Shown piece after piece: positions 90-4,533 of a stretch of 4,533 nucleotides of DNA. The stretch's first letter is position 1. The number at the start of each line of letters is the position of its first letter. A program made the translations under genes and the position numbers. Under the pieces are notes generated by a model, which made no database searches, was not told where the DNA came from, and was given only the letters and a program-made list of their open reading frames with translations. Where the stretch lies: IMG/VR virus record IMGVR_UViG_2534681835_000030; one strand, given 5' to 3'. This DNA comes from a virus (lineage: Duplodnaviria > Heunggongvirae > Uroviricota > Caudoviricetes).

Positions 90-347
90 GTGGATACCCT
101 TTATTTCACAGTAGACGACTGCTACCGCGTGGACTTCACACCACACGGACTGGCGTTGCACTGCCTGACACCGCACGGCGAATCACTGCTGGCGTATTAC
201 GACTCCCCGGCCTCCGTATTTGCGGCAATGCTGGCGCATCGCACTGCTGGCGGGTGTGCCTCGCTGAGTGAATACACCGCTGAATTTAACCGCCTTTCCA
301 CCATCTTCTTGCAGGAGTGGCAGCGCGTGACGGGATACCAGCCATGA
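90..347 (+). CDS. Small hypothetical protein (85 aa from GTG 90), possibly 5'-partial because the frame stays open to the window start
   Basis: Frame-3 ORF ending at TGA 345-347, which overlaps ATG 344 of the downstream rep gene (ATGA arrangement, typical of translational coupling). GGAG at 83-86 sits only 3 nt before GTG 90, which is short for an RBS. No recognisable motif or homolog. The frame has no stop back to position 3, so the true start may lie upstream of the window. Confidence 0.4.
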   Translation: MDTLYFTVDDCYRVDFTPHGLALHCLTPHGESLLAYYDSPASVFAAMLAHRTAGGCASLSEYTAEFNRLSTIFLQEWQRVTGYQP

Positions 348-3182
348 GTGAGTTTGCATGGAGCTGGAATGAACCACGACCAGCCATTGATCCGGCCAGA
401 TTTACGGAGCACAGGCAGGAAACTGAAACCGACCTGCAACGCGCCATCCGTTACTACCTTGAGGCGGACAAAAAGGCCCGGAAAGAACAGGAAGCGAAGG
501 AGGAAGCCTTTTTCGCACAATCCACCGTGGGTAAAAAACTCATGGCATCCCTTGAGGAAGCCGGACAGCGTGAAAAGCTGGCACAAAGCATCATCAGCAA
601 GCGTCAGGCAACAGAACAAGACCCGGTGGCCCGTGCTTTTGCCACACTGAAGGTGCTTCCCGTTTATCTGCGTGAACCTCTGAGCCGCCACCTCTCTTTC
701 CTGCGCAAAAAACAGGAATCCGATCGTCAGAAAGGCAAAAAGAGCTGGCAGGCTGAACGCTACGCGCGCGGAACCCTGCGCAAAATATTCGTACGTCTGG
801 ACCGCACCGACAGCCGTTGGCTGACACCGGGTTATCGGTCCCTTGCCGGACGTGAACGCCTGGACGATTTGCTTTACCTGCCGCAACTCAACAAACACCA
901 GATACAGACGCTGGCCACCATGACGGCGGCGATGTTCAGCAGCACCTTCGAAAAACTCTGCGATGGTTTTGGCGCGACTGATGGCGAGCTGACCATGGAT
1001 GTAACGCTGAAGGCGTATCAGATGCTGGCCCGCATGGCGTTACACTTGCACGCCATGCCTCCGCATTATGACGCACTGACAACAGACAAAGACCGGAGGA
1101 ACGAACCGGACACGGAGCTGCTGCCGGGCGCAATCCTTCGCCTGACCTGTGCGGAATGGTGGAAACGCAAACTGTGGCTGTTACGTTGCGAGTGGCGGGA
1201 AGAACAACTCCGCGCCGCCTGTCTGGTTTCCAGAAAAACATCGCCCTATCTGAGTCAGGACGCGTTAAGCGAGTTTCGCGCACAGCGCGAGAAAACACGC
1301 GATTTCCTGAAAAGTTTCATGCTGGAAAATGAAGACGGGTTCACGATTGATCTCGAGACGGTGTATTACGCGGGAGTAAGTAACCCGGTTCACCGTAAGG
1401 CAGAAATGATGGCCACCATGAAGGGACTGGAACTTCTGGCCGAAGCCCGTGGCGACAGAGCGGTGTTTCTGACCGTCACCTGCCCGTCAAAATACCACGC
1501 AACAACGGAGAACGGTCATCCGAACCCCAAATGGAACGGGGCCACCATGCGCGACTCCAGCGATTACCTGGTTAACACGTTTTTGCGGCGGTCCGCAAAA
1601 ACTGAACCGCGACGGCCTGCGCTGGTATGGCATCCGCACGGTGGAGCCTCACCATGACGGCACTGTGCACTGGCATATGATGGTCTTTGCACATCCGGAC
1701 GAGATTGAAACCATCGTGTCCCACGTCTGCGATATTGCCATTCAGGAGGACCGCCACGAGCTGGGCAATGATATTACTCCGCGCTTTAAGGCGGAGTATG
1801 TCGACGGCTCAAAAGGCACACCAACCAGCTACATCGCCACCTACATCGGAAAGAACCTGGACAGCCGCGCCGTGGATGGCATCGACCCGAAAACGGGCAA
1901 GCCACGCGTTGACCACGAAACCGGAAAATCAATGGCCGAGAGCGTGGAGCGCGCCATCGGCTGGGCGCGCCTTCACCGGGTCCGTCAGTTCCAGTTCTTT
2001 GGCATCCCCTCCCGTCAGGTGTGGCGTGAACTGCGCCGCCTTGCCAGCCAGATGGCACGCAATCCGGAAGGCCCGCAACAGCTGAAAGATGATGCAATGG
2101 ATGCGGTACTCGCTGCCGCCGATGCCGGGTGTTTTGCCACCTACATTGAAAAACAGGGCGGCGTACTTGTTCCACGCAAAGACTACCTGATTCGCACCGC
2201 CTACGACCTCGCAGATGAGCTGAATGATTACGGCGAACAGAGCGTACAGATTTACGGGATCTGGTCACCACTCATCGGGGAATCCTCCCGTGTGTGCACG
2301 CATCCGGATAACTGGAAACTGGTAAGACGTAAACCGGAAACGGAAGACAGCGCCCGCGAAAATGGTTTTGACCTTCAGGGCGGCCCTGCCGCCCCTTGGA
2401 CTCGTGGCAATAACTGTCCCCGTGTACAGGAAACGGACAACAACGGGGCAGAACAGCCGGAAGAACGGCCAGCACCGTGGCCGCAGCTCCCTGACGGCGT
2501 TGAAGTGAACGAATGGATGCGCTCACTGAAACGGCACGAACGCCGGGCGCTGATGCGTTCGCTTCGTGACAAACAGGCAAAAAACAGCAGTGATGAAATG
2601 CAGAGCTGGACACAGAGCCGCAAACAGCAGCGGCCTTTGCCTGATAACCACGAATTACTCGCTAAAGAATGGCGGGAGTCTGCCGAATCTCTCGGCCTGC
2701 ATATCGGTGAACAGCAGATGCAGCACCTGCTACGGGGCGGCAGCCTGTACGTTGACGGCAGCATCATTGCACCGCAGGGATATGAAATTGTACGCAAACC
2801 GGATACCCGCCCGGACAGCCGAATCACGCAGCTCTGGCAGCACCTGAGCCGTAATCACGGCGTAAGCAGCACGGAGATCCGCCATAACCCGGTCGCCAGC
2901 TATCTGGCACAGCTGGGGGCATCAGACCCCGAAGCCGCCGCACGCCTGGCATCCGCACTTCAGCAGGATCAGAACACCATGAAAACACCCGTTACCGTGC
3001 TTTCTGACATGCTGCGCGCCATCCGCGACGCAGAGCACGCACAGAGAATCAGTGAAACCACTGAACGCGCCAGCCGCAAAGCAGACCTGCTGCGGGGTGG
3101 CCTGACCAGTGGAAACAAAAAACAGACAGAAACGGGACTCACAAATCCCGTAAATGAGCAAAAAACGCGCAGCGATATATGA
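344..3182 (+). CDS. P2 gpA-like rolling-circle (HUH) replication initiator, about 945 aa if read through; interrupted by an apparent +1 frameshift at the A5 run 1597-1601 (possible pseudogene or sequencing error)
   Basis: All three rolling-circle Rep motifs are present in order: motif 1 FLTVTCPSKYH (1466..1498, frame 2), HUH motif HWHMMVF (1668..1688, frame 3) and the two-tyrosine motif YIATYIGK (1830..1853, Tyr codons at 1830 and 1842). The junction KWNGAT...DYLVNTFLRRSAK / LNRDGLRWYGIRTVEPHHDGTVHWH reads continuously if one A is removed from 1597-1601. Track ORFs 317..1657 and 1641..3182 are the two halves. ATG 344 is preferred over GTG 317 because it overlaps the upstream stop and has GGGA at 332-335. 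Stop TGA at 3180-3182. Confidence 0.82.
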
Positions 3183-3228
3183 AGCGCGCACAAAACAGGC
3201 AAAAACGGGATTTCAGAATCCCGTAAAC
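3115..3228 (+). repeat. Two copies of an imperfect direct repeat of about 40 bp, each containing the palindrome ACGGGA-N8-TCCCGT followed by AAA; candidate parC-like centromere / ParR operator
   Basis: Copy 1 core is 3132..3151 (ACGGGA ctcacaaa TCCCGT), inside the last 17 codons of rep. Copy 2 core is 3205..3224 (ACGGGA tttcagaa TCCCGT), in the rep-parM intergenic region. The flanks are also shared (AACAGaCAgAAACGGGA versus AACAGgCAaAAACGGGA; TCCCGTAAA in both). Spacing is 73 bp. The position directly upstream of parM fits where parC lies in known ParMR loci. Confidence 0.35.
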
Positions 3229-3258
3229 GATTAATTAATCAACATAAGGAAAAGCGAC
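3205..3258 (+). promoter_or_regulatory. Putative parMR promoter and leader overlapping repeat copy 2, including the parM RBS
   Basis: AT-rich 76-bp intergenic region with the TTAATTAA palindrome at 3231-3238 (possible -10-like element ATTAAT at 3234-3239) and a weak -35-like TTTCAG at 3211-3216 inside the palindrome. RBS AAGGA at 3246-3250. The hexamer matches are weak; the call rests mainly on position. Confidence 0.2.
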
Positions 3259-4217
3259 ATGAAAATTTGTATCGACGACGGCTCCACCAACATCAAGCTG
3301 GCATGGACTGAGAACGGCGAACGCCGCAACGCCATCAGCCCGAACAGCTTCAAGTCGGAATGGTCTGCGCCATTCGGTGGCACGCAGCCCGCGAACTACA
3401 TGCTTGATGGCGTGCGCTATGGTTTTGATCCGGTCAGCGATCGCTTTGTCCAGACGACCGACACGCAATACCAGTACAGCGATGTGAATGTAATTGCCAT
3501 TCATCACGCGCTGGTCAAATCAGGCATCACACCACAGGAAGTGGATGTGGTTGTCACCCTGCCACTGAGCGAGTATTTCGATACAAACGCACAGCCGGAC
3601 ATGGCCAACATCAACCGCAAAAAGCGAACGTTATGCGCCCGGTGGAGTACCAGAACGGCGAAGCATTCACTATCCGTAACGTGCGGGTTATGCCTGAATC
3701 CATTCCGGCTGGCTTTAAGGCACTGGCTGACATGAGTCCGTTTGAATCCCTGCTGATTGTGGATTTGGGCGGAACCACGCTGGATGTGGCAAAGGTTCAG
3801 GGGCAGCTGGCAGGTATCAGCCAGGTGTTTTGCGATCCACACGTAGGCGTTTCCCTGATGGCTGATGCCGTGCTGTCGGTGATGGCCACTAACGGTATGC
3901 GTACCAGTCACCACATCGCCAATACCATTATTGAGCACCGTCACGATGAAGCCTGGCTGCGCCAGCACATTCACAATGACGCGCATTACAACAGCCTGAT
4001 GGCGGTTATTCGTGAAAAGGAGGAGACACTGAAACAACGAGTGATCCGCGCGCTGGCGGGTTTTTCCGGTTACGGGCGGGTGATGGTTGTCGGTGGAGGG
4101 GCGGAGATTGTGGCACCCGCTATCCGCGAAGCCTGCGGAGTTAATGCGACTTTCATCACGGACGGGGTGCCACAATTTGCTCTGGTTAATGGGCTGTACG
4201 CAATGAACAAGGAGTAA
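3259..4217 (+). CDS. parM: ParM/StbA actin-like plasmid segregation ATPase (type II partition), about 320 aa if read through; interrupted by an apparent -1 frameshift at the A5 run 3619-3623
   Basis: The N-terminus MKICIDDGSTNIKL and the internal SPNSF, YSDVNV, HHAL, MPESIPAG, DLGGTTLD and VVGGGAE motifs are collinear with R1 ParM as I recall it. RBS AAGGA at 3246-3250 lies 8 nt before ATG 3259. Frame 1 (3259..3735) carries the N-terminal half and frame 3 (3633..4217) the C-terminal half. Inserting one A in 3619-3623 gives ...ANINRKKANVMRPVEYQNGEAFTIRNVRVMPES..., which matches ParM ...ERKKANF...TFTIKDVKVMPES. Confidence 0.88.
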
Positions 4218-4221
4218 ACCA

Positions 4222-4533
4222 ATGACGACACCAACCAGAAGAATAAGTTTCTATCTGAAGCCAGCTGCCGTCAAGAACGAAGGAGAAGCATGCGCCTGGC
4301 TGGACAGCCTTACACCAGAAGCCCGCAAAAGCGGCCAACGCGTGGCTTTTCTGGCCGGGCTGGCACTTCTGAAGACGAATCCGGCAGAGGCTTACCGACT
4401 GGCCGCATGGGCTGATGATGAGATGTTACCTGTGACACAAATCAGCTCAAAAAAGTTTGAAGCACAGTCTGCACCAGTGGCTAAGATAACCAGCCAGATG
4501 GCTGGGAATATCCGGGCGTTATTTCCTGAGTAA
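4222..4533 (+). CDS. parR: ParR/StbB ribbon-helix-helix centromere-binding adaptor of the ParMR system (103 aa)
   Basis: Lies immediately downstream of parM in the canonical parM-parR order. RBS GGAG at 4211-4214 lies 7 nt before ATG 4222. The N-terminus RRISFYLKP...LDSLTPEARKS...RVAFLAGLAL resembles R1 ParR RTIAFKLNP...LDSIPQGERS...RAALTAGLAL. Stop TAA at 4531-4533 is the last codon in the window. Confidence 0.78.
   Translation: MTTPTRRISFYLKPAAVKNEGEACAWLDSLTPEARKSGQRVAFLAGLALLKTNPAEAYRLAAWADDEMLPVTQISSKKFEAQSAPVAKITSQMAGNIRALFPE

Follow-up and report, generated by a model that had tools for sequence, protein, structure and literature searches.

The initiators of phages P2 and 186 (gene A) belong to the Phage_GPA family and carry motif 1, the HUH motif and the YxxxY motif, and the ori lies within the gene. 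In P2, gene A is followed by orf91, tin and old and no partition genes. Partition pairs of the parMRC (stbAB) type are known from R1/NR1, IncF, IncI-gamma/K and IncL/M plasmids. In the R1 type parM precedes parR, A/C-rich cis repeats lie upstream of parM, and the centromere has ten 11-bp iterons around the promoter. The host of these systems is a plasmid, whereas the cassette described here belongs to an integrating phage.

Similar pairs occur on other elements. The SXT/R391 ICEs are integrated; an HUH relaxase replicates the circle formed on their excision, and the ParMRC-like srpMRC stabilises it. Four repeats, direct and inverted, make up the centromere of this system upstream of srpM (Carraro et al. 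2015, PMC4489591). With an integrating element, a transient circle, an HUH enzyme and a type II system, srpMRC is the best functional analogy. It differs in that an ICE takes the place of the phage, and a relaxase that of gpA as the initiator; the same paper also reports that no similarity of SrpR to ParR could be detected. The function of srpMRC was demonstrated by experiment, while the present cassette is known from sequence. In the CGP3 prophage of C. glutamicum the actin-like AlpAC pair is induced early, and efficient replication of the phage DNA depends on it (Donovan et al. 2015, PMC4446434). Here too a prophage-encoded actin-like ATPase is combined with an adaptor, which binds upstream of its own operon; however, AlpAC belongs to a distant Alp family, the adaptor gene comes first, the demonstrated role is in replication and not segregation, and neither the phage type nor the host is related. 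Among other isolated phages only the P1-like plasmid prophage D6, with its stbAB pair, has a close ParM (47.5% identity); its genome record annotates StbA as similar to P88 StbA. D6 is, however, a true plasmid prophage of 91 kb with P1-type replication, and its StbB is only distantly alignable.

The pairing of gpA with parMR and the idea of a plasmid state have been published (Pfeifer 2021; Rousset 2022), and a facultative episomal phase was already proposed in print. The ParMR cassette is present in about one quarter of E. coli P2-like prophages (Rousset 2022). We found no experiment on the P88-like parMR in the searchable literature.

Gene content of a P88-like replication-partition segment

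The window is the whole stretch of 4,533 nucleotides that was analysed. Judged from its sequence, it is the replication-partition segment of a P88-like temperate phage of the P2 family (genus Xuanwuvirus, family Peduoviridae). It contains the following features:

1-347, plus strand: 3' part of a small early-operon ORF of unknown function
344-3182, plus strand: rep, gpA-type HUH rolling-circle initiator ('replication endonuclease')
1466-1486, plus strand: rep motif 1, FLTVTCP
1580-1601, plus strand: two frame-shifting 1-nt deletions in rep (T6 to T5 at 1580-1584, A6 to A5 at 1597-1601)
1668-1688, plus strand: rep HUH motif, HWHMMVF
1830-1844, plus strand: rep catalytic double-tyrosine motif YxxxY, YIATY
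2369-2417, plus strand: P2-ori-like sequence inside rep
3116-3157, no strand: repeat A, candidate parC/operator, in the last codons of rep
3189-3230, no strand: repeat B, candidate parC/operator, within the rep-parM spacer
3259-4217, plus strand: parM (stbA), actin-like segregation ATPase
3619-3623, plus strand: 1-nt deletion in an A-run of parM (A6 to A5)
4222-4533, plus strand: parR (stbB), centromere-binding adaptor

The closest relative, with 99.2% identity, is a chromosomal prophage of E. coli O111:H8. Phage P88 (Xuanwuvirus) is about 96% identical to the window, and the P88-like relatives overall show 94-97% DNA identity. The same order of small ORF, gpA, 76-bp spacer, parM and parR is found in the P88-like prophages P88, Chuche, PhiR44_2, phiSM, 520873 and vB_EcoM-569R5. 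In P88-like phages the spacer is the same or almost the same and ParM is 98-99% identical; the window copy differs from the other members by three homopolymer frameshifts. The group is mosaic in the first ~320 nt of rep (344-664) and in parR beyond a recombination breakpoint near 4276. The small ORF starts just 5' of the window edge and has 116-129 aa in relatives. It matches PHROG phrog_3237 (E 5.9e-36), is annotated as 'hypothetical protein' in the records of three relatives, and its TGA stop overlaps the ATG of rep as ATGA.

After repair of the frameshifts, rep encodes 946 aa between the ATG at 344 and the stop at 3182 and matches Pfam PF05840 Phage_GPA (E 2.1e-129) and phrog_91 (3e-275), which is labelled 'nicking at origin of replication'. 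A preliminary description of this DNA had reported motif 1, HUH and YxxxY in a gpA-type initiator; all were found, and they align with FITLTAP, HWHMMLF and YIAKY of the P2 A protein. Over the whole alignment the two proteins share only 30% identity (E 9e-79), and rep has extra N- and C-terminal sequence compared with the 761 aa of P2 A. Newly added here is a P2-like ori within rep, at the homologous intragenic place. It was recognised by local alignment to the P2 ori region, which puts the equivalent of the annotated P2 nick site (29892 in P2) at ~2398. The segment also stands out as an island of similarity to the DNA of Klebsiella P2-like phages without parM.

The start of parM follows the rep stop after exactly 76 bp, as had been described. 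The repaired protein of 319 aa matches StbA_N (1.8e-82) and the ParM C-terminal domain (1.6e-68) of Pfam. It is alignable end to end with R1 ParM (PDB 1mwk), across residues 2-316 (E 7.8e-93, ~50% identity), and the nucleotide-binding motifs DDGSTNIK, MPESIPAG and DLGGTTLD are intact. This ParM forms a lineage of its own: its identity to plasmid ParMs does not exceed 52%, and at least 5,000 plasmid hits contained no match between 60% and 95% identity. Also new here is the strong purifying selection on parM (dN/dS 0.04-0.08); selection on parR is weaker (0.19-0.28). These values suggest that the cassette is in use and not a decaying remnant.

ParR is complete with 103 aa, compared with 117-140 aa in plasmids, and its stop is the last codon of the window. 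It matches Pfam PF10784 Plasmid_stab_B (9.8e-24) and phrog_2515 ('partition protein', 2.3e-59); the similarity to IncF StbB/ParR is 33% over the N-terminal 61 aa (E 1e-8). An invariant N-terminal RRISFYLKP and a conserved C-terminal NIxxLFPE, which is of the IncI-gamma/K and not of the R1 type, flank a hypervariable linker. Such conservation is consistent with an N-terminal domain that binds DNA, a flexible linker and a tip that binds ParM. The alleles range from 42% to 98% identity.

The profile searches on the repaired proteins, which the preliminary description had proposed, matched the families of all three genes and confirmed a type II partition pair directly after a P2-type initiator. 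Its premise that P2-like phages carry no partition system is correct for P2 itself but not for the P88-like group, in which the cassette is standard. The pairing is genuine but ordinary for this group, and the phage type is common and already described. On the whole, the first interpretation is partly supported.

A candidate centromere upstream of parM

On the basis of their sequence we propose 3116-3157 and 3189-3230 as a candidate centromere, which is new here. The two repeats, each 42 nt long and 73 bp apart, both contain a GGGAYT-N4-AATCCC palindrome. Repeat A (direct-repeat family D1, inverted repeat I1) consists of an A/C-rich arm and the 16-bp palindrome GGGACTCACAAATCCC at 3134-3149; in repeat B the palindrome is GGGATTTCAGAATCCC at 3207-3222. 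Each complete 34.5-kb phage genome contains exactly two such palindromes, both at repeats A and B and nowhere else, invariably 73 bp apart and upstream of parM. Salmonella, E. albertii and Hafnia relatives all retain repeat A. The Hafnia copy lies between genes, and the palindromes are kept in that relative even though the C-terminus of rep has diverged. The A-tracts within 3105-3240 are phased at 10.5 bp; the observed value was reached by 2 of 500 shuffles. R1 parC is matched in two further respects, the placement 5' of parM and the ribosome-site context CATAAGGA. Unlike in R1, a scan of 2900-4533 revealed no sigma-70 consensus promoter before parM.

Three observations speak against this assignment. 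Both palindrome hairpins resemble intrinsic terminators with U-rich tails on the minus strand. The putative centromere has only two sites, compared with ten iterons in R1. It is also nearly invariant in spite of the diversity of ParR, which is compatible only if the invariant N-terminal strand does the DNA recognition.

Probable chromosomal residence and the frameshifts

The preliminary description had suggested an extrachromosomal P2-like replicon, either a phage-plasmid or a plasmid with a recruited phage initiator, which would be maintained by gpA/ori and ParMR partition. A gpA with an internal ori, parMR and upstream repeats do form a compact plasmid-like basic replicon. Moreover, the circular 34,461-bp record pZ1323PEC0009-2, labelled a plasmid, represents a full P88-like genome, D6, with the one close ParM among other isolated phages, is a plasmid prophage, P88 was scored as a putative phage-plasmid by Pfeifer 2021, and plasmid maintenance was speculated upon by Rousset 2022. 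However, a chromosomal location applies to 1,639 of the 1,641 matching places, which are spread over 1,444 of the 5,426 complete genomes of E. coli. A tyrosine integrase, C repressor, Cox and complete P2 structural synteny are present in P88, in Chuche and in a 34.5-kb record, and all full-length relatives have integrase, C and Cox. The window itself covers only 4.5 kb, but chromosomal location, an integrase and P2 synteny, all seen in its relatives, are what the preliminary description had named as evidence against its own proposal. In addition, P88 came from the induction of an integrated prophage (PMC5285337). The single phage-sized 'plasmid', pZ1323PEC0009-2, also has an integrase, and its record begins no more than 1-2 nt from where the chromosomal matches on the integrase side end, apparently at the att boundary, as expected from excision or from an assembly-graph split at att. 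The other 'plasmid' hits were mislabelled megabase records, an unplaced linear contig and an IS26-captured fragment in an IncC plasmid. A contiguous attP junction was found in none of 442 genomes (one integrase type). In P2-type phages gpA is part of the repressed early operon, so that replication is not expected in a stable lysogen. A plasmid life of this element is quite unlikely; most likely, the source phage resides as a prophage in an E. coli chromosome. Such a prophage could be decaying, with rep and parM as real pseudogenes and no working system in this copy. As read, both genes are out of frame: rep is split into ORFs 317-1657 and 1641-3182 and parM into 3259-3735 and 3633-4217. The integrase of the O111:H8 prophage is truncated and C/cox are absent, which is a sign of a degraded element. 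But rep and parM are intact in the nearest relatives. All three deletions, called against the 99.2% identical relative, remove one base from a homopolymer of six; of the nine such runs in the region three are shortened, and there are no indels elsewhere in the 4.5 kb, as is typical of homopolymer miscalls. It would also be unusual for natural decay, at only 0.7% divergence, to leave a single gene with two uncompensated frameshifts 17 nt from each other. Because all of them lie in such runs, the deletions are probably sequencing errors, and pseudogenes are an unlikely explanation. The state of the O111:H8 prophage nevertheless means that the lineage of the window may be a grounded prophage with an idle cassette.

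Possible roles of the cassette

A phage that is lytic or integrated has no obvious need for partition.

Instead of serving inheritance, the cassette could be an AlpAC-like cytoskeleton that organises replication during lytic growth, with ParR-anchored ParM filaments positioning or separating monomeric P2-type circles for efficient replication or packaging. The probable co-expression with gpA, the tight linkage of parMR to rep and ori in every relative examined, and the precedent of CGP3, in which both proteins are needed for efficient phage replication, are in line with this role. However, most P2-like phages, P2 among them, replicate well without the cassette, 84 phage records have rep-region DNA in common with the window but 68 of them have no parM, and both ParM and ParR have full orthologues among the segregation proteins of plasmids, which points to segregation first. 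We consider this role rather doubtful. A highly improbable alternative is that the cassette is lysogenic-conversion cargo with a function other than partition, such as keeping out ParMRC plasmids or competing P88-like phages by centromere/ParR incompatibility, or anti-phage defence. It does lie at the edge of gpA-gpQ, a known P2 hotspot of defence and variation (PMC9122126), and the ParR alleles are diversified, with the breakpoint near 4276. But the cassette is constant beside rep in the relatives compared, while the genes 3' of parR vary, and no PADLOC defence model matches ParM or ParR. A tblastn search (E < 1e-3) revealed no relative of ParR in true plasmids; together with the distance of the plasmid ParMs, this makes cross-reaction with plasmid systems unlikely.

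We consider it fairly probable that the window is a P88-like replication-partition segment whose cassette acts on the free phage circle and whose frameshifts are miscalls. In this explanation gpA would nick the origin inside its own gene (~2369-2417), and directly downstream, in the same orientation, lies a genuine R1-type cassette. ParR, with an N-terminal domain homologous to R1 ParR/StbB, is predicted to bind the two palindrome repeats (3116-3230), its conserved C-terminal tip would capture ParM filaments, and these would push or position the DNA circles. Given the lack of a sigma-70 consensus before parM, expression of the cassette probably comes, together with that of gpA, from the early operon. 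It would act while the circle is free and replicating, that is after infection and before integration, and again after excision. Homology and analogy indicate that its likeliest role would be the segregation or positioning of the excised or not yet integrated phage circle, by which the cassette may prevent the loss of the element at cell division or organise its replication.

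Gene content and phage group

The window contains four genes, all on the plus strand, as seen in a six-frame ORF listing and in family searches. The small ORF is matched by phrog_3237; the other three rest on the ORF listing and the family searches together.

to 347, plus strand: 3' part of a small ORF, function not known
344-3182, plus strand: rep, the gpA-type replication initiator
3259-4217, plus strand: parM
4222-4533, plus strand: parR, which ends exactly at the window edge

The stop codon of the small ORF and the ATG of rep are joined in an ATGA overlap, and 76 bp separate rep from parM. 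There are 4 nt between parM and the start of parR, and a Shine-Dalgarno sequence lies within the end of parM. The coordinates and the rep-parM spacing in the preliminary description were correct.

As read, rep and parM are each divided into two ORFs. The best database match, the chromosome of E. coli O111:H8, is 99.2% identical over 1-4533; the alignment with this relative contains 33 substitutions and exactly three 1-nt deletions.

1580-1584: 1-nt deletion in rep, T6 to T5
1597-1601: 1-nt deletion in rep, A6 to A5
3619-3623: 1-nt deletion in parM, A6 to A5

Three of the nine six-base homopolymers in the region are shortened in this way, and there are no indels outside these runs. Because this pattern is the signature of homopolymer miscalling, rep and parM were treated as intact. 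The three frameshifts are probably such miscalls, and they suggest that the source assembly has homopolymer errors; other frameshifted "pseudogenes" in that assembly may likewise be artefacts.

The window shares 94-97% identity with isolated phages, including P88 (Xuanwuvirus, Peduoviridae), Chuche, PhiR44_2 and phiSM. In a comparison limited to the 4.5-kb window, P88 (NC_026014) is 96.1% identical over 665-4533 and has the same gene order. By sequence similarity, the window is assigned to the Xuanwuvirus, or P88-like, Peduoviridae. Both P88 and Chuche encode a tyrosine integrase, a C repressor and Cox, and their early operon ends with gpA-parM-parR; parR is followed by a variable region and then by the P2 genes for portal, terminase, capsid and tail. 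The more distant ParR alleles, including one from a Hafnia MAG, are all found in this gpA-parM-parR-(variable)-portal context. The pairing of a gpA-type initiator with parM-parR is accurate as an observation and is ordinary, being the standard architecture of a common, named phage group.

Both the gpA-parMR pairing and the plasmid hypothesis were already published in 2021-2022 (Pfeifer 2021, PMC7969092; Rousset 2022, PMC9122126). In the genome record of D6, the annotation of StbA notes a similarity to the StbA of P88. The P88 genome paper does not mention partition genes, the phiSM paper did not analyze these genes, and our literature search found no experimental test of a P88-like parMR. This analysis newly contributes just the candidate centromere and the position of the ori, and otherwise adds little as a discovery.

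The nearest relative, the prophage of E. coli O111:H8 strain 8E, adjoins btuC. At its left end by btuC (18073-19457 of that record) a short, truncated integrase gene of 780 nt overlaps a DUF4761 gene. No C repressor or cox is annotated, while rep, parM and parR are intact; this prophage has apparently lost the lysis-lysogeny switch and looks degraded. The 1.2 kb from parR to the next annotated gene (24537-25732) contains no annotated CDS and only short, unconvincing ORFs. This stretch lies in the known variable gpA-gpQ hotspot (PMC9122126). Rfam gave no match to the window or to this unannotated 1.2 kb 3' of parR.

The initiator and the partition proteins

The repaired Rep protein has 946 aa and matches the Pfam family Phage_GPA (PF05840) over the entire profile, positions 1-321 of 321, which cover the catalytic domain (E 2.1e-129). 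It also matches the PHROG for nicking at the origin of replication (3e-275), and BLASTP aligns it to the A protein of P2 with 30% identity (E 9e-79). Motif 1 (FLTVTCP), the HUH motif (HWHMMVF) and the YxxxY motif (YIATY) are all located at the positions of the P2 A motifs. Together, these results bear out the earlier claim of a gpA-family initiator with a full motif set.

The P2-type initiator also carries an ori-like sequence inside its gene. The stretch 2369-2417 can be aligned with the part of P2 that surrounds its annotated nick site; the equivalent position in the window is about 2398, within the Rep peptide GGPAAPWTRGNNC, and we predict this stretch to be a P2-like ori. It is an island of DNA similarity common to Klebsiella P2-like phages, and the Klebsiella phages that have it are without a ParM homolog. 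Among 50,697 phage records, ParM homologs occur only in 14 of Xuanwuvirus type and in two D6 records.

Two further boundaries were seen at the left side of the window. The segment 344-664, the first ~107 codons of rep, is variable, with matches to P88 and many other phages beginning only at 665. A mosaic boundary lies at 1-18: base 1 is included in the match to a single O111:H8 genome, and the remaining top-listed matches begin at position 14 or 19.

The repaired ParM matches both ParM Pfam domains (StbA_N and the ParM C-terminal domain), and NCBIfam scans gave only sub-threshold ParM matches. It aligns end to end with the sequences of the R1 ParM crystal structures (E 7.8e-93, ~50% identity). 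Its nucleotide-binding motifs are intact after repair of the one homopolymer deletion. ParR matches Pfam Plasmid_stab_B (PF10784, E 9.8e-24), and over its N-terminal 61 residues it has 33% identity with the StbB/ParR of IncF plasmids (E 1e-8); a sequence search against solved structures gave no match at E values up to 1. The cassette has the features of an R1-type (type II) system, namely a ParM ATPase with its motifs and a small ParR encoded directly downstream, and the identification of ParM and ParR in the preliminary description is confirmed by the Pfam matches of the repaired proteins. PADLOC defence models did not match the cassette.

Judged from coding sequence divergence, this complete parM-parR pair is maintained by selection: in comparisons with relatives, where dS reached 0.64, dN/dS was 0.04-0.08 for parM, and it was 0.19-0.28 for parR. 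ParM is 93-99% identical across the relatives. ParR falls into at least six allelic classes, with about 98%, 84%, 75%, 62%, 55% and 42% identity. A DNA breakpoint lies near 4276, after codon 18 of parR; many relatives cease to match at this point, and their ParR is only ~55% identical while their ParM is still 98% identical. In 50 full-length ParR alleles the N-terminal strand RRISFYLKP does not vary, and the helix AFLAGLAL is conserved, as is the C-terminal NIxxLFPE. The hypervariable part is residues ~65-95, the linker between the N-terminal domain and the C-terminal tip. The NIxxLFPE tip is also present in the ParR of an IncI-gamma/K plasmid. A protein with a DNA-binding domain, a flexible linker and a putative ParM-binding tip would be expected to show this pattern.

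All of the at least 5,000 plasmid ParM matches have 52% identity or less to the window ParM, which by this comparison is a lineage apart from the plasmid ParMs. A tblastn search found no ParR relatives in true plasmids, which makes it unlikely that the cassette was recently captured from a plasmid or that it cross-talks with one. A scan of genome contigs with ParM found only three near-identical loci and did not widen the taxonomic range. One of the three, a contig labelled as the Gram-positive Vagococcus sp. (NZ_JBQPOM010000071.1), encodes a ParM with 97% identity and has the upstream region of the E. coli prophages; it is probably a contamination or a mis-binned contig.

A candidate centromere upstream of parM

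The region upstream of parM contains two direct repeats, each with a palindrome of the form GGGAYT-N4-AATCCC.

3116-3157: 42-nt direct repeat, candidate parC, palindrome at 3134-3149
3189-3230: 42-nt direct repeat, candidate parC, palindrome at 3207-3222

The repeats are 79% identical and their palindromes are 73 bp apart. Each complete phage genome contains two, and only two, instances of the exact palindrome pattern, in every case upstream of parM and with this spacing. Relatives from Salmonella, E. albertii and Hafnia retain the pair; since rep stops sooner in the Hafnia relative, both copies are intergenic there. The A-tracts over 3105-3240 are phased at ~10.5 bp, with an observed power that was reached by 2 of 500 shuffles (six periods tried) and that is among the three highest of 440 windows, which hints that the DNA around the two palindromes is intrinsically curved.

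The candidate resembles the parC of plasmid R1 in the position of the repeats, the A/C-rich arms and the ribosome-site context CATAAGGA. The four-half-site layout of its two palindromes also resembles srpC from SXT/R391, a site bound experimentally. The candidate parC consists of two sites only, and a sigma-70 consensus promoter was sought before parM and not found.

The same palindromes can be read as transcription terminators. On the minus strand, 3132-3151 and 3205-3224 form hairpins (RNA folding energies of -10.2 and -12.7 kcal/mol, respectively) that each have a U-rich tract after them and are scored as intrinsic terminators; they might keep antisense transcripts that arise in the variable region out of rep. 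The palindrome arms are invariant and the 4-nt centre is variable, and the outer stem pairs show no compensating changes, a pattern more in keeping with a protein site than with an RNA stem. However, terminator-like hairpins are, by eye, already present directly 3' of parR in the relatives, and P2, which has no parMR, does not have the palindrome. For the latter two reasons we favor ParR sites over terminators; the assignment of the palindromes in 3116-3230 as putative ParR sites is nevertheless about evenly balanced.

Integrated relatives and a proposed role of the cassette

The preliminary description had proposed an extrachromosomal phage-plasmid, or a plasmid with a phage initiator. Partition genes are indeed present on a phage genome, with replication by a phage-type gpA, and P88 is listed among putative phage-plasmids, positive on the replication/partition-gene criterion (Pfeifer 2021, PMC7969092). 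A match to the window is present in 1,444 of the 5,426 complete E. coli genomes; 717 carry the whole module, with at least 80% of the window. Nearly all of the matching places in complete E. coli genomes (1,639/1,641) are chromosomal, and the integrated relatives have integrases. Autonomous, non-integrated maintenance was not found among these relatives, and the phage-plasmid reading is not supported by them.

The database matches labelled as plasmids were inspected singly. A 1.4-Mb record and other very large "plasmids" are evidently chromosomal or hybrid. A 26.8-kb "plasmid" of Shigella is an unplaced linear contig full of IS1 and not a replicon. The match in an IncC plasmid is a rearranged prophage fragment bounded by IS26. 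In this conjugative KPC plasmid, pC-Ec2-KPC (NZ_MK439959.1), the fragment at 16505-40380 holds rep-parM-parR together with head and baseplate genes; it appears that IS26 captured a chromosomal prophage segment.

One further record, pZ1323PEC0009-2 (NZ_CP148288.1), is circular, has 34,461 bp and contains a complete P88-like genome including the integrase. A 1.1-kb query was built over its int-attP-methylase junction. The contiguous junction was found in none of 442 genomes that hold this integrase type, a test that is partly confounded since the record starts at the apparent att boundary and its own junction is not scorable. Chromosomal matches to the integrase side end at query position 602, beside pdxB, and the record starts within 1-2 nt of that end. 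Such a start is expected of an excised circle or of an assembly-graph split at att. This suggests that pZ1323PEC0009-2 is one of these two and not a plasmid prophage; it shows circles in at least one culture, not a stable plasmid state.

What would the cassette then do? ParR would bind the two conserved palindrome repeats, which are unique in the genome, and the ParR-bound circles would be moved by ParM filaments. The parMR genes would be expressed along with the early operon, and the substrate would be the free circular phage genome after infection or excision. Two systems that were studied experimentally make such a role plausible by analogy. In SXT/R391 ICEs, which are integrated elements, the circular form depends on an HUH relaxase for replication and on a ParMRC-like system for stability (PMC4489591). 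In the CGP3 prophage, efficient replication of phage DNA requires AlpC, an actin-like protein induced early, and its adaptor AlpA (PMC4446434). By the latter precedent, the cassette could organize replication rather than segregate the circle. We rank this lower because ParM and ParR are full orthologs of segregation proteins and because most P2-like phages replicate without parMR. A bolder extension of the segregation role, which we consider improbable, is that P88-like phages are a widespread class of integrative P2-family phages with a true second lifestyle. The gpA protein, the internal ori, ParM, ParR and a centromere of two palindromes would together make up a low-copy replicon that is self-sufficient, with which an excised or unintegrated genome would persist and segregate for generations in a carrier or episomal state; the ParR alleles would then act as incompatibility groups among co-resident prophages.

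For annotation, the results warn against calling a contig a plasmid because it has ParM and ParR matches. The remaining interest lies in what plasmid segregation machinery does for an integrating phage. If parMR stabilizes the free circle, as srpMRC does for SXT/R391, this would help to explain the efficient establishment of lysogeny, the rare loss of these prophages and the circular, phage-sized "plasmids" that are present in assemblies.
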